Part shown: positions 1-7,421 of the stretch, piece by piece | How positions within the stretch are numbered: position 1 is the stretch's first letter | Layout of the letters: each line of letters opens with the position of its first letter | Virus record (IMG/VR): IMGVR_UViG_2648501208_000002 | Source: a virus | Lineage: Duplodnaviria; Heunggongvirae; Uroviricota; Caudoviricetes | Direction: 5' to 3' (one strand) | DNA: 7,951 nt | Position numbers and translations under genes: made by a program | Notes under the pieces: model-generated | What the model was told of the DNA's origin: nothing | The model's database searches: none | The model's input: only the letters and a program-made list of their open reading frames with translations

Positions 1-105
1 CAGCCGGATATGTGCCAGTACAGACGTTTCAGGGTTGCCATTACATACGCCAGTGATTCTTACCTGGCATTCCCGACCACGCGCTGCTTTTCTCAAATCA
101 GCCAT
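1..105 (-). CDS. Nin-region phage protein, N-terminal fragment (resembles DUF1364-type proteins); runs off the window edge
   Basis: Minus-strand ATG at 105-103 translates to MADLRKAARGRECQVRITGVCNGNPETSVLAHIRL... and is open to position 1. The start overlaps the upstream ninE-like stop (ATGGCTGA) and an AGGAGG lies about 6 nt upstream. The family assignment is from memory only. Confidence 0.4.
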   Translation of the reverse strand, partial: MADLRKAARGRECQVRITGVCNGNPETSVLAHIRL

Positions 106-268
106 GATTCCTCCTTGCTGCCAGTCGCAACCATTTTTTATCAACCAGGCTAGCGGTATATCCGAGCAGTGTTGGTATTTCGGATGGCTTCAGCTCAGGC
201 TTACGCTTACGACGATTTGGTACTCTGTAGATGTGTCCGTTCATGACACGAATAAGCGGTGTAGCCAT
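98..268 (-). CDS. ninE: NinE-like small basic protein (56 aa)
   Basis: Not in the ORF track because it is short. Minus-strand ATG at 268-266, preceded by GGAGG, overlaps the ninB stop as TAATG. Translation [56 protein letters not shown] resembles the C-terminal half of lambda NinE as I recall it (KPKPIPKE...YTAHLWDIRWLRRRARK). Stop TGA at 100-98. Confidence 0.5.
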   Translation of the reverse strand: MATPLIRVMNGHIYRVPNRRKRKPELKPSEIPTLLGYTASLVDKKWLRLAARRNHG

Positions 269-723
269 TACGCCTCCTGCTTGTCGCGCAGCAGCTGGAA
301 CTCGCAGCTCTGCGGAATAGTCAGGTGGCAGCCAATATTCATCGCCCAGGCTTCAACCTTACACAGGAAGACATACATCTCTCCGGTATCAAGATCGGAA
401 GTATGGCGTAACGACTGGATAGTAGTGATTTCGCCGGTTACGACATCAACCAGGTCCTTGGTTTCATAACCGAGGTATGTGTGTTTGAGAGCATCTTTTA
501 CCCAAGCTGGAGTGGCGAACGTTTTACCCCTGCTGATGAGGTATTCACTGATTTCGCTGTACCACATGTGGCTGAGTGCATTCTGGGAAAGACTGCGTTT
601 CTCACGCCACGGTTTAAGCACCATGCGAAAGCATTTCCCTTCCTCCAGATAAGGCTGGATCTGCTGGCCGATAGCGGTGAAGTTACCACGATGCAATTTG
701 ATGCCGTCTTGTGGGAGGTTCAC
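268..723 (-). CDS. ninB: NinB-like recombination protein (151 aa), GTG start
   Basis: 151-aa ORF. The start codon is GTG (plus-strand cac at 721-723) with GGAGG about 7 nt upstream. It sits where ninB sits in lambda, after ren and before ninE. The [13 protein letters not shown] segment resembles the NinB RSLDQN..LW segment; overall it is divergent from lambda NinB. Confidence 0.55.
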
Positions 724-750
724 GCTTCACCTCCGCAGAGGTCAAACGCT

Positions 751-841
751 GGATGCAAAAAATCGCAGGTGCATCTCTGCATCTGTGAAGGGAGAAGAGA
801 GTTTGGATTGTATGTGCGCATAAACGTCCCCGTTTAGCGCA
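751..841. repeat. Copy 1 of a 91-bp imperfect direct repeat (about 92% identical to 2684-2774); ends in a strong hairpin (815-841)
   Basis: Aligned by eye against 2684-2774: 7 mismatches over 91 nt, same orientation. The terminal hairpin is tgcgcataaacg / tccc loop / cgtttagcgca, an 11-bp stem with one bulge. It lies immediately upstream of the ninB start on the minus strand. Confidence 0.85.
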
Positions 842-917
842 GAAGTCACCGGAGTTGTTCAAGCTCCAATGGCATGATTATGGCTGGTTGATTATTGGAA
901 ATCAAATGTGCTGAAAA

Positions 918-1427
918 TTAGTCTGCCAAGTCTTCCTCAGTCGCAACTGGGTAATTCCAAATATCAAAAAAAGCTATAGCCTCCTGCCATTTGCTCCATA
1001 AGTTATCAAGTACTTGTGTAGGTTCCGTACTTTTAAAAACAGAATCAGCCGCATCACCGTTATGAACTTCCTCGTACAGTTCCATTATTAGCAGATTAAC
1101 AAAGTACTGTTTCAACATTAATGCCTGATTACCTTCTTTCTGCTGGCTATCCTGCTTGATGAGCTCCATCGCCCGTACTAGGCACCTGATGATATCCGCT
1201 GCATCATTAACGCTCCATTCAGATCCGCGCTTATCTTTAGCTGATGAATTAGCTCTCTCAGCGCAAGCCTTTAAAGACTCATAAAGGTAAACTCTATTTT
1301 GTAGCTGCAGCGCTTTTTTTGACGTGCACCAACTTGCAAGCGCCGACCCCGCTGCGGCTAATGTGCCAAACGCAGAAATGCCTGCTGCTATTGCACTTAA
1401 GTCGGCACTGTCAAAGTTCCACATCAT
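918..1427 (-). CDS. Hypothetical protein (169 aa) with a hydrophobic N-terminal segment; function unknown
   Basis: ORF with AAGGTG 5 nt upstream of the ATG at 1427. Residues about 9-33 (LSAIAAGISAFGTLAAAGSALASWC) are hydrophobic and could be a membrane anchor or signal; the rest is predicted helical with an acidic C-terminus. AT-rich codon usage unlike the lambda backbone. No family recognised. Confidence 0.55.
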   Translation of the reverse strand: MMWNFDSADLSAIAAGISAFGTLAAAGSALASWCTSKKALQLQNRVYLYESLKACAERANSSAKDKRGSEWSVNDAADIIRCLVRAMELIKQDSQQKEGNQALMLKQYFVNLLIMELYEEVHNGDAADSVFKSTEPTQVLDNLWSKWQEAIAFFDIWNYPVATEEDLAD

Positions 1428-1661
1428 CGTTACACCTTATATAAACACCCCTCAGTAATATCCAATAAGGTATGTGAACAATCAATATAATTTATATCCG
1501 TATCGGCACATAGCGATTTTAATGCTACTGATAATGGTATCTTTTAGATTATATCGTCCAGTTCCAGTACCCGTATTTTATGAAATGGACTCGCACATTA
1601 CCAAAAAAATGCCAGCACTTCCGTCATCGCAGAATGCTGGCAGTATTTCTAACTAGTGACT

Positions 1662-2270
1662 TTATTGCAACAGATTCTGACGGAAATATGGTAACACACG
1701 ACTCCACTTATCATCCTGCCACGGTTGGAATTTTACATGCGCCGTTTCTCTGGCAAGGATTTCTCGCGCCCTGTTGAGTATCCGAGGATATTCTTGTTCG
1801 ATTGAAGTGAATCTACCTGCTTCGCGATGCTCTGCGACCTGAAGAAGGGGCGTAACGTTCTGGCAGGCGGTTAACATCGTATCACTTGCTCGCCATAACC
1901 AGGCGAGTGTGCAAAGTTCGTTATCAGTGAATTGTTTTGTGATTGGGGATTGTTGAACTTCTCGATCGAGAATATCCAGAACCCAGCGGCGGAATTCTTT
2001 GGCCACAGGAGTACGAGCAAACATGGCGATCAAATGGGCTCCGCGAAGGCTAAATACTCGAGACTCCTGCATTCCACGAGGGGTGGTCACTTTGACCACC
2101 CTTGTCATCATATCTGTGAATTCATCTGAGTGCCGAGAGTAAATGCGCTGAACTGCTTTATCGTCCGCATATTCCAGTGCTAAACCAACTTCAGTGGCAG
2201 TAAGCCAAATTCTGTTATTGTGGCAAATCGGGGTAAACGTCGTTTTGTGGAATGCTAATTGAGTAGTCAT
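1662..2270 (-). CDS. BRO-N / phage antirepressor N-terminal-domain-like protein (202 aa)
   Basis: ORF with GAGGTGA 5 nt upstream of the ATG at 2270. The N-terminal region (RIWLTATEVGLALEY...SLRGAHLIAMFARTPVAKEFRRWVLDIL) fits the Bro-N/antirepressor pattern (..DVA..LGY... / ..AK.F..WV) from memory. The C-terminal half is unassigned. Confidence 0.55.
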   Translation of the reverse strand: MTTQLAFHKTTFTPICHNNRIWLTATEVGLALEYADDKAVQRIYSRHSDEFTDMMTRVVKVTTPRGMQESRVFSLRGAHLIAMFARTPVAKEFRRWVLDILDREVQQSPITKQFTDNELCTLAWLWRASDTMLTACQNVTPLLQVAEHREAGRFTSIEQEYPRILNRAREILARETAHVKFQPWQDDKWSRVLPYFRQNLLQ

Positions 2271-2426
2271 AGTATCACCTCATCAGGTTAACCATCACCA
2301 CCAACGACGCCAATCGACTGGTGGTGAACTGTGTAAGGTTGGCGTAACCGGCTACTCAAACCCGGCGCTTCCGAAGAAGCCCTCACACAGCCCACCATAA
2401 TTTGGGCATAGCCGTGCTTAGCGCAC

Positions 2427-2448
2427 AAAAAAACCGCTTAACGCGGTA
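2427..2448 (-). terminator. Putative intrinsic terminator on the minus strand
   Basis: Minus-strand RNA reads ACCGC-GUUAA-GCGGU followed by 7 U (plus-strand A-run at 2427-2433, stem-loop 2434-2447). The stem is short (5 bp) and only moderately GC-rich. Confidence 0.4.
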
Positions 2449-2533
2449 TGCGTTGAGTAGTATCCCGGGACGCCAATCCCGTGTGCCGATTTTGCGGCAA
2501 CGCACAGAATATAGCGCCGGATAAATCATGTCG

Positions 2534-2623
2534 TCAACCCCAGTAAATGGACACCATGATGATCACAGCCATAGCTGCTACAACAGTTACAACTACCTCA
2601 GGCCAAAACATAACGATTTCCAT
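2534..2623 (-). CDS. Possible 29-aa hydrophobic peptide (MEIVMFWPEVVVTVVAAMAVIIMVSIYWG)
   Basis: Not in the ORF track (too short). AAGGTGA lies directly upstream, but the spacing to the first ATG is only 2 nt; the internal Met at codon 5 would give a 25-aa product with more usual spacing. Almost entirely hydrophobic, single predicted transmembrane helix. The putative terminator at 2427-2448 follows about 85 nt downstream. Speculative. Confidence 0.3.
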   Translation of the reverse strand: MEIVMFWPEVVVTVVAAMAVIIMVSIYWG

Positions 2624-2683
2624 ATCACCTTTAGCCGCCAGACGAATAGAGACTCCCAATTCTGGCTGTCGAAGTAAAACACC

Positions 2684-2774
2684 GAATGTAAAAAATCGTA
2701 GGTGCATTTCTGCATCTGTGAATGGAGATGAGAGTTTGGATTGTGTGTGCGCATAAACGTCCCCGTTTAGCGCA
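2684..2774. repeat. Copy 2 of the 91-bp imperfect direct repeat; the same terminal hairpin at 2748-2774
   Basis: See copy 1. Copy 2 lies between the 500-aa gene promoter region and the small-peptide/BRO-N module. Confidence 0.85.
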
Positions 2775-2822
2775 ACCCCACCACCGGGTGTTCAGGCCGA
2801 CAGTAACTATATTATTCCCTAC

Positions 2823-2838
2823 TGATTTTTGAAAATCA
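2823..2838. promoter_or_regulatory. Perfect 7-2-7 palindrome TGATTTT-TG-AAAATCA; candidate operator
   Basis: Seen directly in the sequence, about 245 bp upstream of the 500-aa gene start in an AT-rich intergenic region. No cognate regulator identified. Confidence 0.25.
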
Positions 2839-2893
2839 AAGGTCTTTATACGTCACACGAGAGCAAATATTTCCGAAGAAGAAACCTTTCGCC

Positions 2894-2991
2894 TTGAAAG
2901 GATAAAGAGTTCATTTCATAAATTGAAATATTCAATAAGAATATTGCAAAAAATGAAATTATTTACTAGCGAGTCTATCTAACTGATAATT
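2894..2991 (+). promoter_or_regulatory. Candidate sigma70 promoter region for the 500-aa gene
   Basis: Two by-eye candidates: TTGAAA (2894-2899)-N17-CATAAA (2917-2922), and TTACTA (2963-2968)-N17-ATAATT (2986-2991). A hairpin CCTTTC-N5-GAAAGG (2885-2901) overlaps the first -35. Low confidence; AT-rich DNA gives many chance matches. Confidence 0.2.
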
Positions 2992-3082
2992 ATGAAGATT
3001 GTAAGCGGTAGCAATCACCCGCATACACATTGAACAGGATTTAATACAAAACGTCTTAAATTGTCCGTAAGGAATAGCACGA

Positions 3083-4585
3083 ATGACTCAAACTCCTCTA
3101 TTACTTGCAATCATATTTTTATTGGTTGTTCTTGTTCTTTATATAGCTGCAATCAAACGCATCAAAAAAATACAATTAGAATTAAGTGATAGCAATCAAA
3201 AAAATGAAGAATACAAATCTCGCTTTGCAGATTATTTTAATGTAGAAGAAGAATGTAAGAAGCTTATTGAGAAAACAGAGCAAGAATGCTCCATAATAAA
3301 AGAAGAATCCCTAAAAGTAAAAGAAAATGCCAATAATGAACTAACAAACACCATTGAAAAAATGGATGGTATCAATAAACAAATCCAAGAGCTAAGAAGA
3401 ACTTATAAAGAGAAGAAAGAAATATATGATAAACTAGTAAGGCAAATTTCTATTTATTCAGAAGATGTTGAGCTAGCCGAACTAGGATTTTACGAACCTC
3501 ATTTTAATTTTGAAGATTCAGAGCAATTTAAAAACAAAATAAAATCCATCAGGGATGAACAGAAATTAATGCTGCGGGATAAAACCCACTCTGGCGCAGT
3601 ATATTGTACAACCCAATGGACTGTTGAAGGCTCTCGAGCAGAGGGTAAAAAAATGACAGACAGAAATATCAGGCTAACTACTAGAGCATTTAATAATGAA
3701 TGTGATGCTGCAATTAGCAATTGCACGTGGAAAAACATCACTAAAATGGAAGAACGCATCACAAAGGCATTTGAGGCCATAAATAAACTAAACGAGCAAA
3801 ATCACATATATATAAACACTAAATACCTCAATAAAAAACTTGAGGAATTGTGGCTTACCCATGAATATCGTGAGCAAAAACAGAAAGAAAAAGAAGAACA
3901 GGCAGAAATAAGGGCACAAATGAGAGAGGAGGAGCGTGCACAACGAGAAATAGAAAAGGCCATGCAAGACGCAGAGGCAGAAGAGCGCCGTTATAAAAAA
4001 GCAATTGAAGCTGCAAGAAAGGAAATGGAAAAAGTTACTGGTGACATGAAGCAGCGCCTCGAAAATCGCATTGCCGAACTAGAACAGAGTTTGTCGCAGG
4101 CTGAATCAAAGCATCAAAGAGCATTATCCATGGCACAACAAACCAAACAAGGTCATGTTTATATTATTTCGAACATAGGTTCTTTTGGGGAGAATGTTTA
4201 TAAAATAGGCATAACACGACGTCTTGATCCGCAAGACCGTGTAAATGAGCTCGGTGATGCATCTGTTCCTTTTATTTTTGATGTACATGCCATGATTTAT
4301 TCGGAGGACGCTCCATCATTAGAAAAAAAACTACATGATGTCTTCGATAAAAAGAGAGTCAATCTTGTAAATCGTAGAAAAGAGTTTTTCTATGTTACTC
4401 TGGATGAGATCAAAGAAGCTGTTAAAAAACACTCTGATTCAGAAATTGAATTTATTGAGACAGCAGTCGCAAAAGACTTTAATGAGTCATTGGCTATTCG
4501 TAATCATGAAAATAAAAAAAGTGACAACAGCAACTCATCAATTATACCTGAGCGAAAAACCCCAGAGTTTGCAGATGCAATTTAA
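3083..4585 (+). CDS. Membrane-anchored coiled-coil protein with C-terminal GIY-YIG-like (T5orf172/MUG113-type) domain, 500 aa; candidate anti-phage or exclusion protein
   Basis: Longest ORF in the window, on the strand opposite the phage early operon, with AAGGA 9 nt upstream of the ATG. N-terminal hydrophobic helix (LLLAIIFLLVVLVLYIAAI). Residues about 250-340 are K/E/R/Q-rich heptad-like coiled-coil. C-terminal GHVYIISNIGSFGENVYKIGITRRLDPQDRVNELGD...EKKLHDVF...RKEFFYV matches the T5orf172/GIY-YIG-like signature from memory. The middle region (GFYEPHFNFEDS...CTTQWTVEGS) resembles the DUF4041 region that often accompanies T5orf172. Very AT-rich codon usage, by eye roughly 30-35% G+C. Confidence 0.85.
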   Translation: MTQTPLLLAIIFLLVVLVLYIAAIKRIKKIQLELSDSNQKNEEYKSRFADYFNVEEECKKLIEKTEQECSIIKEESLKVKENANNELTNTIEKMDGINKQIQELRRTYKEKKEIYDKLVRQISIYSEDVELAELGFYEPHFNFEDSEQFKNKIKSIRDEQKLMLRDKTHSGAVYCTTQWTVEGSRAEGKKMTDRNIRLTTRAFNNECDAAISNCTWKNITKMEERITKAFEAINKLNEQNHIYINTKYLNKKLEELWLTHEYREQKQKEKEEQAEIRAQMREEERAQREIEKAMQDAEAEERRYKKAIEAARKEMEKVTGDMKQRLENRIAELEQSLSQAESKHQRALSMAQQTKQGHVYIISNIGSFGENVYKIGITRRLDPQDRVNELGDASVPFIFDVHAMIYSEDAPSLEKKLHDVFDKKRVNLVNRRKEFFYVTLDEIKEAVKKHSDSEIEFIETAVAKDFNESLAIRNHENKKSDNSNSSIIPERKTPEFADAI

Positions 4586-4610
4586 TTAATTTGTAGTAGC
4601 AATAAAGCAG

Positions 4611-4650
4611 GCATCGTTGAGAATATTTTGTCAGCGATGCTTACTTCTCT
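4611..4650 (+). terminator. Possible terminator or hairpin downstream of the 500-aa gene
   Basis: Inverted repeat GCATCG-N18-CGATGC followed by TTACTTCTCT. The loop is long and the T-tract is interrupted. Confidence 0.2.
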
Positions 4651-4833
4651 AACAAAAACGGTGATTACCAACGAACTAACGGACTTCAGGTAATCATAAG
4701 ACAAATGGAACGACTCTCCGGTGATTAGATCCCTGCAATAACAGTAATTTTCTACTAACTGAAAAATCTTTAACTGCCGCTCCTATTTCTAAGCTGACTG
4801 CTAGATTACATGGTGTGTTACCGATGAAAACCG

Positions 4834-5136
4834 TCACAGCAAGTTTAAGTTCATATCTCCATACACTGCCAACACTCGTTTCATCGCGGCACTCTGGCGA
4901 CACTCCTTGAAAATCAGATTCGTGCTCACCTTTCCTTCCCGTTCTTCCCTGGTAGCGAACCGGTAATACACCGTTCGCCAGACCTTACCATCAACGACCA
5001 AGATTCCTGCCCGTGCCATTTTAGCCGCAGCCTGATTTATACTGGTTACTGTTGCGCCTGTTACCGCAGCAACGTCCTGCGCACAGAAGCTCTTATGCGT
5101 CCCCAGGTAATGAATAATTGCCTCTTTGCCCGTCAT
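4834..5136 (-). CDS. ren: Ren protein (lambda-type), with a divergent C-terminal tail
   Basis: MTGKEAIIHYLGTH...ATREEREGK...KECRQSAAMKRVLAVYG matches lambda Ren as I recall it. The last 7 residues (DMNLNLL) differ from the lambda ending. The ATGA start/stop overlap with P is as in lambda. Confidence 0.85.
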   Translation of the reverse strand: MTGKEAIIHYLGTHKSFCAQDVAAVTGATVTSINQAAAKMARAGILVVDGKVWRTVYYRFATREEREGKVSTNLIFKECRQSAAMKRVLAVYGDMNLNLL

Positions 5137-5834
5137 ACAGTTGCTCCTTTCAGTCCGAACTTCGCTTTGATTTCTGCGATCTTCGCCAGAGCCTGTGCAC
5201 GATTTAGAGGTCTACCGCCCATGACAGGAAGTTGTTTTACTGGTTCAGGTATCGCCTCACCACGGTTAATTCGCGCGGTCATACAAGTCAGTTCATCGGC
5301 AGCCTTGCGCCGTAATTCCGCATCAGTAAGCGCATTGGCCCGCATGTTCTGATACAGGTTGGTAACCAGCCAGTAGTGCGCGTTTGATTTCCACGGATAA
5401 GACTCTGCATCTGGATACAGGCCACGTTTCCGGCAATACTCGTAAACCATATCAACCAGCTCGCTGGCGTTTGGCAGCCCGGCGGTAACGGATGCTTCTT
5501 CCCGGCACCAGGCAACAAACTGCCCGGGTGATGGCAGGAATGGTCGATTCTGCCGACGGGCTACGCGCATTCCTGCGTCAACCTGTTCCATCGTGGTGAT
5601 CCCGTTTTCCCGGAAAGCCAGAACCCACTGGCGGCGGATTTCGTTCAGTTCGTTCTGGTCCCGGTTAGCCAGGCTCGCCGGGAAAGTTGCCAGTAACTGG
5701 CTGAACACACCATTGATGATCTGCGCTACCTGTTGTACCTGCGGCTTTTCGTCGTACTGTTCCGGCATGTTGTTGGCGATCCGGCGCATCTGCTCACGGT
5801 CAAAGTTAACCATCTGTGCGGCGATGTTTTTCAT
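5133..5834 (-). CDS. P: Replication protein P (lambda-type, DnaB helicase loader)
   Basis: 233 aa, MKNIAAQMVNFDREQMRRIANNMPEQYDEKPQ...AKFGLKGATV, almost identical to lambda P from memory. Confidence 0.95.
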   Translation of the reverse strand: MKNIAAQMVNFDREQMRRIANNMPEQYDEKPQVQQVAQIINGVFSQLLATFPASLANRDQNELNEIRRQWVLAFRENGITTMEQVDAGMRVARRQNRPFLPSPGQFVAWCREEASVTAGLPNASELVDMVYEYCRKRGLYPDAESYPWKSNAHYWLVTNLYQNMRANALTDAELRRKAADELTCMTARINRGEAIPEPVKQLPVMGGRPLNRAQALAKIAEIKAKFGLKGATV

Positions 5835-6726
5835 AAATCCACCCCGTAAATCCAGTCAGTGTTAAAGCCTGTTGCTTGTTACGGTTGATTTCGAGTTGGG
5901 TCCACTTGTCGCGGAGTTTGGCCGGACTTAGCACGTTACCGGACCAGAAGTTGTCCTGGCATGCCCAGCGGAACAGCACGCACATGTCGCGGTGGTTACG
6001 GCCGTCACGTTCACGCATCAGGCGGATATCGTTAGCCCACCCTGCAAAATTCGGTTTTCTGGCTGATGGCGCGATGGTCTTCACCATGTCAAACATCCAC
6101 TCTGCGGCGGTCAGGTCTTCTGCTGTCCCCCACCTGCTGCCGCTCTGAATTGCAGCATCTGGTTTCTCCACAGGAAGATCGTTTTCTGGTTGGTCAGAGG
6201 ATTCGCCAGAATTCTCGGACGAAAAAGGTTTTATATTGTCTTTTGTTAGTTTGTCTTTTGTGTTTACCTGATTCGGGTAAGTGCCTTTACCTGATTTGGG
6301 TAAACTTTTCTTACCTGATTCAGGTAAATTTACCTCTTTCAGGTAAACTTTATTTTTCTTACCTGATTCGGGTAATGTTGACCATTCACTGACCACATTA
6401 TTAATGCCGATATTCCGCCCGCTCTGAATAAAAATCCCACGCTTTACCAGAACACTTTTTGCAGCAGAACACTTGTGCGGCAATATCCCGGTCAACTCGG
6501 AAAGTTGCTCGTTGCTCACCCAATCCAGTTTTTTATTAAAGCCATATGTTTTGCGCATGACAGCCAGGAAGACCAGAAGCTGGTGCTGTGTTAATCCGGC
6601 CAGCATCACAGCTTCCAGCAACTCATTTGCAATGCGCGTATAACCATCATCGAGATCTGCCACGCGCGGCTCCTTTTGTGCCGCATCCGGCACTGGAAAA
6701 TTGAATATCTCAGCAGTGTTTGCCAT
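5806..6726 (-). CDS. O: Replication initiator protein O (lambda-type C-terminal domain; N-terminal iteron-binding domain diverged)
   Basis: The central and C-terminal region (YSSENSGESSDQPENDL...TAEDLTAAEWMFDMVKTIAPSARKPNFAGWANDIRLMRERDGRNHRDMCVLFRWACQDNFWSGNVLSPAKLRDKWTQLEINRNKQQA) is lambda O. I place the start at the internal ATG at 6726 (MANTAEIFNF..., GGGAGG 4 nt upstream), which corresponds to the lambda O N-terminus; the ORF track extends 30 codons further, to 6816. The 3' end overlaps P by 29 nt in an unusual way (see findings). Confidence 0.9.
   Translation of the reverse strand: MANTAEIFNFPVPDAAQKEPRVADLDDGYTRIANELLEAVMLAGLTQHQLLVFLAVMRKTYGFNKKLDWVSNEQLSELTGILPHKCSAAKSVLVKRGIFIQSGRNIGINNVVSEWSTLPESGKKNKVYLKEVNLPESGKKSLPKSGKGTYPNQVNTKDKLTKDNIKPFSSENSGESSDQPENDLPVEKPDAAIQSGSRWGTAEDLTAAEWMFDMVKTIAPSARKPNFAGWANDIRLMRERDGRNHRDMCVLFRWACQDNFWSGNVLSPAKLRDKWTQLEINRNKQQALTLTGFTGWIYEKHRRTDG
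6265..6375. repeat. Replication origin iterons (five 16-bp repeats, consensus TACCTGATTCGGGTAA) inside O
   Basis: Repeats at 6265-6280, 6288-6303, 6312-6327, 6331-6346 (degenerate) and 6360-6375, each with palindromic ends (TACC...GGTA). An AT-rich tract at about 6225-6264 lies on the side expected from lambda ori organisation, given that O is transcribed on the minus strand. Confidence 0.8.
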
Positions 6727-6812
6727 AATTCCTCCCGCAATGAGTGTGTTACGATTTGCACCTGAAAGTCGGTTCTGTTCCCGCAGACCGACTTTCGCCA
6801 TTTCTGAACCTG

Positions 6813-7352
6813 TCATATTGCCCCCAGCATGGTGGTCACCATCGCCATTAATGGACCAGCCAGATCCGGGTCCACACGAAACATCGACACAATACCTTCA
6901 CTCATTTCCTTCAGTTTCTGGTGGCGTGGTGCGTTGAGAATGACAGCCTGTTTTGCCTCACTGAGTTCCTTTTCCATTTCAGCCAACCGAGTCATGAAGC
7001 TATCCTGCTCAACCAGGTAACCGCGATATTCCAGCGGTAGTACCGCCAGAATTGCCGGGGTCAGTTCACGCACGTTATTTCGGTATTTTTCAGAATCGAA
7101 TTTGTTATCGAGGAAGCGGAACAGCTTCTGGCGTGCACGGCTGACATCATCAGGGAAATCGATGGTGCCGTCGCCCTGCTCCCGATACTCATTCACAATG
7201 AGTGCGGCAACGACATCCTGATTATCTACAGCCGACCAGGCGCGGACGGCATCACGGATTTTTTCGTGGCCTGGAGCTTGTTTTGTTTGAGAACGATTTA
7301 TCACCGCAGTCGGAATAAATCCGCTAGTCTGTTGGTATGTAAGTGGTTGCAT
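6813..7352 (-). CDS. YdaT-like protein occupying the cII position (179 aa)
   Basis: ORF with AAGGAG 8 nt upstream of the ATG at 7352, immediately downstream of the cro-like gene. The segment RELTPAILAVLPLEYRGYL resembles the conserved PAILAILP.ELR motif of YdaT-family proteins from memory. Confidence 0.55.
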   Translation of the reverse strand: MQPLTYQQTSGFIPTAVINRSQTKQAPGHEKIRDAVRAWSAVDNQDVVAALIVNEYREQGDGTIDFPDDVSRARQKLFRFLDNKFDSEKYRNNVRELTPAILAVLPLEYRGYLVEQDSFMTRLAEMEKELSEAKQAVILNAPRHQKLKEMSEGIVSMFRVDPDLAGPLMAMVTTMLGAI

Positions 7353-7421
7353 AATTGACTCCTTTAGTTTGAATTGACTGTTAAGTTGATTGCTTATTGT
7401 TAAAGAGCGTGAAATGGAAAT

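Follow-up and report, generated by a model that had tools for sequence, protein, structure and literature searches.

Why does a lambdoid phage carry the same segment of DNA twice, in the same orientation, on either side of a cassette with an antirepressor gene? This question is raised by the IMG/VR virus record IMGVR_UViG_2648501208_000002, of which we analysed a stretch of 7,951 nucleotides (nt), referred to here as the window; Escherichia phage PhiR26_1 (PV340555.1) is 99.9% identical to it. The repeated segment (copy 1, next to the recombination gene ninB, and copy 2, almost 2 kb away) is read on the minus strand, as is the early-right operon. Based on the data reported here, we consider it probable that each repeat is a copy of the leader of the delayed-early operon extending from ninB, or whichever gene is first, to Q, that copy 2 is truncated at its 3' end and partly decayed, and that exchange between the copies adds or removes the cassette.

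Extent and anatomy of the repeated unit

A repeat search of the whole window returned one long direct-repeat family, i.e. 738-841 and 2671-2774, which are 104 nt long, 89% identical (93/104) and 1933 nt apart from start to start. All other repeats are at most 30 nt long with 73-95% identity, and the pair is therefore far beyond chance. A 16-nt inverted repeat (1577-1592 and 2907-2922) was dropped because it is within chance for 8 kb of AT-rich sequence. A preliminary description of this DNA had given the repeats as 751-841 and 2684-2774 with approximately 92% identity, and our count (84/91, 92.3%) agrees. The hairpin that it reported in both copies, tgcgcataaacg-tccc-cgtttagcgca, is identical at 815-841 and 2748-2774, and its block (hairpin B below) is the longest identical run between the copies (29 nt); the TGCA-N4-TGCA element is likewise found in both, at 770-781 and 2703-2714. 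The extent of 91 bp does not hold. While the repeat is real, the homologous unit is larger, approximately 170-185 nt, because a covariance model of the unit has exactly two matches in the window (874-746, minus strand, 97 bits; 2807-2679, minus strand, 67 bits), and promoter-like hexamers precede both (905-877 and 2839-2811). Only the 3' two-thirds of the unit is visible by eye, while the 5' third is too diverged.

In phage 82 and 16 other phages, the DNA that precedes orf151/ybcN matches copy 1 with 96-100% identity. In the phage 82 record X92588, to which the identity is 97.1% over 104 nt, the same 33-codon open reading frame (ORF), the overlap with orf151/ybcN, the hexamers and the inverted repeat are all present. 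We identify copy 1, from its sequence, as the ylcH-ybcN locus of the E. coli K-12 prophage DLP12 and the orf33-orf151 locus of phage 82, and the unit as the predicted 5' leader of the operon leading to the late-gene activator Q in lambdoid phages of the phage-82/DLP12 type. The complete leader, from 905 to 721 on the minus strand, has the following elements (uORF, upstream ORF; SD, Shine-Dalgarno sequence).

877..905, minus strand: sigma-70-like promoter from a consensus scan, -35 TTGATT at 905-900, 17-nt spacer, -10 CATAAT at 882-877
847..871, minus strand: stem-loop A from folding, 8-bp stem and 9-nt loop CUUGAACAA
815..841, minus strand: stem-loop B, the 11-bp hairpin of the preliminary description, with the uORF ATG (821-819) in its 3' arm
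789-814, minus strand: linker between B and C, 26 nt, C-rich and G-poor
788-763 and 762-757, minus strand: stem-loop C and its U-run, terminator- or attenuator-like, within the uORF
722..749, minus strand: stem-loop D, -16.8 kcal/mol, with the ninB SD GGAGG (734-730) and some of the GTG start codon hidden in it
720..821, minus strand: uORF orf33/ylcH, 33 codons, from the ORF list and annotated as orf33 in phage 82

The hexamers, which X92588 annotates as putative -35 and -10 elements, may act as a promoter: among 166 distinct homologous upstream regions, the best match reaches at least 8/12 in 156, with shuffled controls much lower, and in 148, across two unrelated sequence families, the -10 lies at a fixed distance of 34-38 nt before hairpin B. 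A palindrome, TTGATT-N7-AATCAA (window 888-905), spans the -35 and the spacer in 75 of 167 distinct upstream regions, and the Fur-box-like TGATAATCATT replaces it at the leader promoter in another subgroup; both could be operators. Stem-loop A is predicted to lie at the extreme 5' end of the transcript, in a region that X92588 labels a "possible regulator-binding site".

On the minus strand, hairpin B has an 11-bp stem with one bulge, a GGGA loop and a folding energy of -14.4 kcal/mol, and the SD-like GGGGA of the uORF is in or beside this loop. The preliminary description suggested that the repeat may derive from the tR2 region of phage lambda, and a corresponding reading is that the 11-bp hairpin is this phage's tR2 terminator, with which it shares the map position just upstream of ninB. 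However, hairpin B is followed by CAUACAAUCC without a U-run and is not a terminator; it encloses a ribosome-binding site and a start codon. Nor does the lambda region resemble the unit. The 73-nt ren-ninB spacer of lambda holds only the bare tR2 hairpin and its U-run, 20 nt before ninB, with no promoter, uORF or SD-sequestering hairpin; the covariance model scores at most 5.3 bits on lambda 40200-41200, and lambda is not among the 31 phage records that blastn returned for the unit. The derivation from lambda is thus not borne out, and it is extremely unlikely that hairpin B is tR2. What the unit shares with tR2 is the map position and a presumed role in limiting transcription into the nin region towards Q, and the positional analogue is hairpin C with its U-run.

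The apex of hairpin C is TGCA-GAGA-TGCA, i.e. the TGCA-N4-TGCA element mentioned above. A terminator scan identified 781-764 plus ATTTTTTGCA, which has part of what defines a terminator (a G+C-rich stem-loop followed by a U-run); the extended stem has an energy of -9 to -14 kcal/mol and two conserved A-C mismatches, and the U-run is interrupted. The linker that separates B and C keeps the same composition (39% C, 6% G) in each class although its sequence differs; it could serve ribosomes as an unstructured track or be a loading patch for Rho. At its 3' end, the leader runs directly into ninB/ybcN, the TGA of the uORF (722-720) overlapping the GTG (723-721) as GTGA. Folding of the 149-nt copy 1 gave z = -3.4 for the sense strand and z = -2.4 for the antisense strand.

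Conservation of the RNA and of the reading frame

The unit is widespread. By blastn, the 31 phage records have it, as do 2741 of 5426 complete E. coli genomes, and two scans of IMG/VR gave approximately 170 true instances. A scan of genome contigs with a 16-mer returned mostly chance matches, among which the model confirmed Enterobacter vonholyi, two Pseudescherichia and, weakly, Yokenella. Single-copy units are always found directly before the first gene of a segment that ends in Q. This gene encodes NinB, of which three highly dissimilar types occur (95, 22 and 10 instances), or it is a DUF968 gene followed by Q in contig L115 or, in contig L110, Q itself. By contrast, the cargo upstream of the unit is unrelated between phages and includes ybcM, DNA polymerase III theta, an inverse autotransporter and PD-lambda-1, among others, and homology between such unrelated contexts extends from the -35 hexamer to the next start codon. 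The suggestion that the copies mark module boundaries is therefore supported, in that the unit stands behind unrelated cargo and before three NinB types, the DUF968 gene and Q.

The structure was followed in covariance-model alignments. In a plain MAFFT alignment of 59 leaders, hairpins A and B were out of register between classes, and for this reason RNAalifold recovered only hairpin C from it. The covariance-model alignment comprises 88 distinct sequences, which are related to one another and fitted to the model. In this alignment, 94.2% of the cells that should pair do so, versus 68.6% in shuffles, and 27 of 30 pairs have double-sided changes. The covariation score is 0.587 versus 0.170 in shuffles, none of 500 of which reached 0.587. 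When partners were slid by 1-3 columns as a control, pairing fell to 26-35% and the score to at most 0.054. The leader is, in other words, a conserved structured RNA with compensatory changes beyond those in the controls. Because G-U pairs are frequent, we assign the structure to the sense RNA rather than to the DNA or the antisense strand.

All four hairpins contribute to this pattern. Hairpin A has 79 distinct stem variants around a conserved loop, YCUGRRCAM, and its pairs covary (helices 1-3). Hairpin B (helix 4) is formed by at least seven different stem sequences (-13 to -17 kcal/mol), has double-sided changes at 10 of 10 pairs and always carries the ATG or GTG in its 3' arm. Hairpin C, which RNAalifold found in the structure-blind alignment, shows the exchanges AU/CG, CG/GC and AU/CG; its stems range from the Klebsiella GGC...GCC type to unrelated stems in contigs L193, L203 and L206, and GAUUUUCUGCAU is nearly invariant after every stem type. 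Hairpin D occurs as three sequence types (-12 to -18 kcal/mol), each of which sequesters GGAGG; in the model-fitted alignment, 91% of its cells are paired versus 81% in shuffles, with 46 versus 12 double-sided cells. Three other pairings were rejected. A long-range helix between the uORF and ninB starts (columns 68-71 with 171-174), proposed by RNAalifold, came from misaligned columns; pairing of AUGCAGAAA with UUUCUGCAU, a rival to hairpin C in the E. coli type, has two uncompensated mismatches in the Klebsiella type; and pairing of CUUCAC with GUGAAG, from the minimum free energy fold of copy 1, is absent from the HK225 type.

A scan of the window with Rfam 15 (E <= 1) returned no family at 720-905 or 2671-2839, the only matches being C4, isrK and c4-a1b1 in the cassette. 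A literature search on ylcH returned just one codon-usage table and one transcriptome table. The leader seems to be uncharacterised as far as the searchable literature shows, and it is absent from Rfam. Among antitermination RNAs, nut sites consist of a boxA consensus beside a pentaloop hairpin, while put sites are two specific stem-loops that follow an early promoter and act in cis on RNA polymerase. No boxA was seen by eye in the unit, and the loop of hairpin A has 9 nt as opposed to the pentaloop of nut; the promoter with two hairpins resembles a put-type antiterminator RNA, which we regard as a lead.

A promoter at a fixed distance, three covarying hairpins and a U-run after the last could also make the segment from the promoter to the U-run (A, B and C; approximately 110 nt) a stand-alone, trans-acting prophage small RNA, to which coupling between the uORF and ninB is secondary. 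The conserved loop on a variable stem in hairpin A would suit this, as would two reports on K-12: the ylcH RNA is listed alone, separate from ybcN, as regulated in a transcriptome table (PMC8910356), and the downstream ybcN-rusA operon of DLP12 is expressed only after insertions that create a promoter (PMC4118853). However, the segment matches no Rfam family and has no identified target, the element always stands immediately before a gene, and the kept frame, hairpin D and the stop/start overlap show that read-through transcripts are functional. We consider a small RNA distinctly unlikely.

The frame within this RNA is kept. A uORF of 31-33 codons is present in 23/30, 52/53 and 41/41 distinct sequences of three classes, and the exceptions are mostly of the copy-2 type; in L193, an in-frame insertion of 18 nt extends it to 38 codons, and one class of homologues starts it with GTG. 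Of 84 distinct variants, 81 have a stop codon that shares bases with the following start (ATGA or GTGA). Thus, the leader has the features expected of a uORF that is coupled to a downstream gene, i.e. a frame that is open across homologues, a stop/start overlap and a downstream SD sequestered in a structure within the uORF.

The peptide, by contrast, is free to vary. The mean entropies at the three codon positions are similar in each class (0.19/0.17/0.12, 0.24/0.21/0.27 and 0.16/0.16/0.14), and the ratios of synonymous to nonsynonymous variants are 10:24, 15:40 and 16:35 (approximately 1:2.4); by neither measure was purifying selection on the orf33/ylcH peptide detected in the three classes. 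Compensatory changes in hairpin C rewrite the peptide from SQMQKCTC to SPMAKATG, and searches of Pfam and PHROGs found no family that matches it. Because the frame and the stop/start overlap persist while codon positions vary equally and the peptide is rewritten, we conclude that translation of the uORF is conserved and its product is not; the peptide sequence evolves neutrally, and conservation is at the level of the RNA.

These observations bear directly on the reading of the unit as a small protein gene, ylcH/orf33, with a conserved function of the 33-residue peptide and with copy 2 as its truncated pseudogene. Annotation speaks for a gene: it is a coding sequence in phage 82 and in RefSeq and is listed as a hypothetical protein in E. 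coli genomes, and NCBI's Prokaryotic Genome Annotation Pipeline (PGAP) calls copy 2 in O157:H7 an incomplete, truncated pseudogene of orf33/ylcH. Also, almost every homologue keeps the ORF open, with little change in its C-terminal DFLH..GGEA. However, the stretch for this C-terminus coincides with the U-run, the SD and hairpin D, where synonymous sites are conserved too, and conservation reaches 85 nt upstream of the ORF. Together with the equal variability of codon positions, the near-neutral substitution ratio, the rewritten peptide and the lack of a Pfam or PHROG family, this makes a conserved protein very unlikely. The preliminary description had named overlap with a known coding sequence as an outcome that would speak against it; formally, copy 1 does coincide with orf33/ylcH, but what is conserved is the RNA and not the protein. 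X92588 treats the same locus as a protein gene with predicted signals, whereas we describe an RNA structure with an open frame free in sequence, add hairpins C and D and report a second, truncated copy.

The truncated copy, the cassette and exchange between the repeats

Copy 2 has the following elements.

2811..2839, minus strand: promoter-like TTGATT-17-AATAAT, 9/12 consensus positions, aligned with the copy-1 promoter
2780..2804, minus strand: stem-loop A', 8-bp stem with three G-U pairs, loop CCUGAACAC, within the model match 2807-2679
2748..2774, minus strand: stem-loop B', identical to B of copy 1, the 29-nt perfect block to which crossovers map
2690..2721, minus strand: stem-loop C' with U-run, weakened by G-to-A at 2699 (C-A mismatch; -4.4 versus -9.3 kcal/mol)
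2671..2689, minus strand: end of homology by pairwise alignment, with the break at uORF codon ~28, before hairpin D and the coupled start

The single-sequence fold of A' favours an alternative structure. The junction at the break is the same in O157:H7 G5295, phage IdasGreatGrand and several IMG/VR contigs, in all of which the small ORF, isrK, C4 and ant follow, and the junction of truncated leader and small ORF is found in approximately 300 of the 5426 complete E. coli genomes. Mismatches in the inner stem of hairpin C are present in 6 of 7 leaders of the copy-2 type versus 2 of ~80 of the copy-1 type, and the O157/Idas type has a different C-A mismatch there. Further lesions are specific to lineages: ATG has changed to ATA in IdasGreatGrand, together with a change in a loop, codon 15 is TAG in L040, and L051 has a 1-nt deletion.

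The DNA between the copies has the following features.

842..2670, minus strand: cassette, which together with one repeat is a 1933-bp present/absent unit
2534-2623, minus strand: small hydrophobic ORF MEIVMFWPEVVVTVVAAMAVIIMVSIYWG, phrog_4612, between the truncated leader and the isrK promoter
2537-2508, minus strand: the cassette's own promoter match, 10/12
2514-2427, minus strand: isrK/a1b1 RNA, Rfam isrK 58.7 bits; c4-a1b1 39.6 bits, under its gathering score of 46.7 bits
2447-2433, minus strand: terminator in isrK/a1b1, ahead of the antirepressor
2402-2317, minus strand: C4 antisense RNA, Rfam 74.8 bits
2270-1662, minus strand: BRO-N/P22AR-C antirepressor (ant), Pfam and PHROGs
1427-918, minus strand: ORF of 169 amino acids (aa), phrog_1779 (unknown function)

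The RNAs at 2317-2514 are predicted to form an RNA switch like that of the P1 immI region ahead of the antirepressor, and a second GATTGGCGTC target motif lies directly before the ant SD. The cassette, with C4, isrK, c4-a1b1 and the antirepressor, resembles c4 RNA with ant in P1/P7 immI and isrK-orf45-anrP in Gifsy-1 (Hershko-Shalev et al. 2016, PMC4825925), a likeness that concerns the cargo and not the repeat. The small ORF has conservative changes in IdasGreatGrand and a stop codon inside in O157:H7 G5295. Genes after ant differ between carriers, with the 169-aa gene in the window and a pair of HEPN-domain genes in O157:H7 G5295. The 169-aa ORF has no Pfam or PADLOC match, and the AT-rich gap upstream of it contains a promoter-like site at 1604-1575. 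In Shiga toxin (Stx) phages, the isrK-C4-ant module is located after ninE, without the leader unit.

Could copy 2 be a working second regulatory unit that drives or gates the small ORF and the isrK/C4/antirepressor cassette? The preliminary description had suggested a regulatory element reused upstream of both ninB and the small ORF. Its 9/12 promoter match, a foldable A' and a hairpin B identical to that of copy 1 are compatible with function; in O157:H7 G5295 and IdasGreatGrand, an extended uORF ends in TGATG and overlaps the in-frame ATG of the small ORF; the lesions in hairpin C could have been selected for transcriptional read-through; and the arrangement is kept in ~300 E. coli genomes. 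On the other hand, hairpin D and the coupled start are absent, each lineage has its own lesion, the uORF in the window runs 30 nt beyond the start of the small ORF, the small ORF is interrupted in O157:H7 G5295, and the cassette brings a 10/12 promoter with it and, in Stx phages, functions in the absence of the unit. We give this reading some credence but doubt it. The suggestion of a regulatory element thus stands as one on the transcribed strand, whereas full reuse at the small ORF is doubtful because the 3' part of the unit is missing from copy 2, which has lesions as well. The missing hairpin D and coupled start, the lineage-specific lesions and the unit-free module in Stx phages lead us to see copy 2 as what is left of the event by which the cassette arrived, although it may keep a residual promoter role.

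Evidence that the copies recombine comes from naturally occurring empty sites. Contigs L048, L037 and L073 are collinear with window 1-841 plus 2671-7353 at 97-99% identity, i.e. they equal the window minus 1933 bp, and each carries a single hybrid leader that joins the copy-2 5' flank to a body of the copy-1 type. In L048, this leader has the rare GAGA loop of copy 1 in the window. Judged by sequence, the hybrid leader is the exact product expected of an exchange between the repeats with a crossover in the 29-nt block of hairpin B. Because the three contigs lack exactly one repeat and the cassette, we conclude that the copies are recombination substrates, and the proposal that they offer homology for cassette exchange is strengthened by the single hybrid repeat. 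Other contigs record further exchanges: four different leader bodies adjoin the flank on the PD-lambda-1 side, L051 has the copy-2 body of the window behind a different flank, and L041 has a mixed pattern of single-nucleotide polymorphisms. As crossover points vary between contigs, recombination would be of the general homologous rather than the site-specific type, and hairpin B, as the longest invariant block, appears to be the usual crossover site.

The varying crossovers also bear on the reading of the repeats as sites where a mobile cassette recombines (att-like, integron-like or transposon ends) or as a long target-site duplication. Direct repeats that flank a cassette and single-copy empty sites formally give a site-specific pattern. 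However, no recombinase or transposase was found in 842-2670 or its flanks in the ORF list, Pfam or PHROGs; the repeats are at least 104 nt long and 11% diverged; the content between copies varies (169-aa gene, HEPN pair, others); and the single unit is present without a cassette in thousands of genomes. It can hardly be that the repeats are such sites. The preliminary description had already argued against a target-site duplication, and the length of 104 nt, the 89% identity, the lack of a recombinase and the varying crossovers agree with it.

In L110 (IMGVR_UViG_2609459941_000002), the leader has been duplicated independently, and its two copies enclose a bacteriocin cargo (6849-11110). Behind the first copy lie a truncated ybcN, a tail-fibre-like gene and a gene with an S-type pyocin/cytotoxic domain, and the second copy stands directly before Q. 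An SOS-box-like double palindrome lies upstream of the tail-fibre-like and pyocin-like genes (~L110:7540-7585). Relaxed recombination of the Red-beta type acts in lambdoid phages on short diverged homology from ~30 bp upward (De Paepe et al. 2014, PMC3945230). Like the mosaic junctions described in that work, the unit is a short conserved segment between non-homologous modules with crossovers inside and homology in the range of Red-beta, and by this pattern it qualifies as a mosaic boundary, i.e. a linker for homologous recombination. Unlike at other such junctions, the boundary is itself conserved as a regulatory leader, and its two copies in a single genome allow intramolecular exchange, by deletion.

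The surrounding genes place the pair in the ren-nin interval. From ren to ninB, the accessory region has the order PD-lambda-1, copy 2, small hydrophobic ORF, c4-a1b1/isrK, C4, antirepressor, 169-aa ORF and copy 1.

7652-7422, minus strand: cro-like gene, early-right operon
7352-6813, minus strand: cII, early-right operon
6816-5806, minus strand: O, early-right operon, with iterons inside (6259-6375)
5834-5133, minus strand: P, early-right operon
5136-4834, minus strand: ren, early-right operon, after which the accessory region begins
3083-4585, plus strand: PD-lambda-1 anti-phage defence protein, 500 aa, PADLOC 1.5e-197, Pfam DUF4041 and T5orf172/MUG113
268-723, minus strand: ninB/ybcN, Orf-family recombination mediator, first gene served by copy 1, phrog_72 (5.8e-53)
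268-98, minus strand: ninE, 3' of ninB/ybcN

The match of ninB/ybcN to Pfam NinB (9.4e-05) is slightly under the cut-off; its assignment as an Orf-family recombination mediator follows Curtis et al. 2014 (PMC4118853). PD-lambda-1 lies in the ren-nin gap directly upstream of copy 2 and is antisense to the early operon. Within O, an iteron of ~22 nt, TTACCTGATTCGGGTAA-like, is present in five copies (6259-6375), and these iterons are a replication origin of the lambda type. A boxA-like CGCTCTTTAAC is located at ~7405-7395 on the minus strand, in the gap from the cro-like gene to cII where nutR would be expected; no boxB hairpin was obvious by eye near it.

A model for the leader and its meaning for lambdoid prophages

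We suggest the following model for the complete leader. The start of the uORF would be locked in hairpin B with its SD exposed in the loop, while the ribosome-binding site of ninB would be locked in hairpin D and opened only by a ribosome translating the uORF. A ribosome that starts on the uORF would melt hairpin D and hand over to ninB at the overlapping stop (translational coupling). Because hairpin C and its U-run lie inside the uORF, a ribosome following RNA polymerase would suppress C, i.e. keep it from terminating or attenuating transcription. If the uORF is not translated, transcripts would halt at C or remain untranslated, and the sequence of the peptide would be irrelevant. As a result, expression of the genes leading to Q would stay low unless hairpin B is opened, and the invariant loop of hairpin A would suggest a partner.

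Control regions with a leader ORF and coupling or terminators within the ORF include the E. coli pyrBI and tnaC leaders. The unit shares with such leaders a short ORF with an unimportant peptide, a terminator-like hairpin inside it, an SD hairpin that would be opened by the leader ribosome and a stop/start overlap. It differs from them in that it has no sequence relationship and no evident metabolite or stalling signal, a hairpin locks the start of its uORF, and a further 5' hairpin, whose loop is conserved, is present. The leader belongs to the known class of uORF-coupled, attenuator-like leaders, and the repeat pair with its cassette is ordinary lambdoid mosaicism on a widespread RNA leader. 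Both the silent ybcN-rusA genes of DLP12 (PMC4118853) and the separate listing of ylcH RNA (PMC8910356) fit the attenuator model.

Several points weigh against this account. Hairpin C is modest (-9 to -14 kcal/mol, two A-C mismatches, a broken U-run) and may not terminate, and a terminator leaves the strict conservation of CUGCAU after the U-run unexplained. Conservation of the hairpin A loop points to a binding partner, but none was found. An active promoter with a permissive leader predicts that rusA of DLP12 is not silent; its silence fits attenuation or an inactive promoter. On the side of conservation, the covariation counts rest on a model-fitted alignment of related sequences, covariation in hairpin D is weaker (two of five measures are no better than in shuffles), and the open uORF within each sequence class is partly inherited rather than independently maintained. 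Finally, the empty sites are compatible with either direction of the event, i.e. an insertion that gave rise to the window or a deletion that gave rise to the empty sites.

A bolder reading, which we regard as unlikely, is that the leader is an undescribed riboregulator that gates the operon ending in Q, with the loop of hairpin A as the docking site of a phage or host factor or an RNA that opens B, or with A and B acting in cis in the manner of put; copy 2 would then wire the antirepressor into the same signal. If so, the leader would decide whether the late and lysis genes are switched on in approximately half of the complete E. coli genomes.

Under the model that we favour, i.e. leader copies between which the cassette is gained or lost, the repeat pair and the three empty-site contigs provide an unusually clean natural case in which a conserved regulatory segment serves as a homology patch for accessory and defence cargo at the ren-nin hotspot. 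Thousands of prophages, among them DLP12 of E. coli K-12, have this leader ahead of the genes that lead to Q. It could explain both the silence of the ybcN-rusA-Q operon in DLP12 and the restraint on N-independent Q expression.

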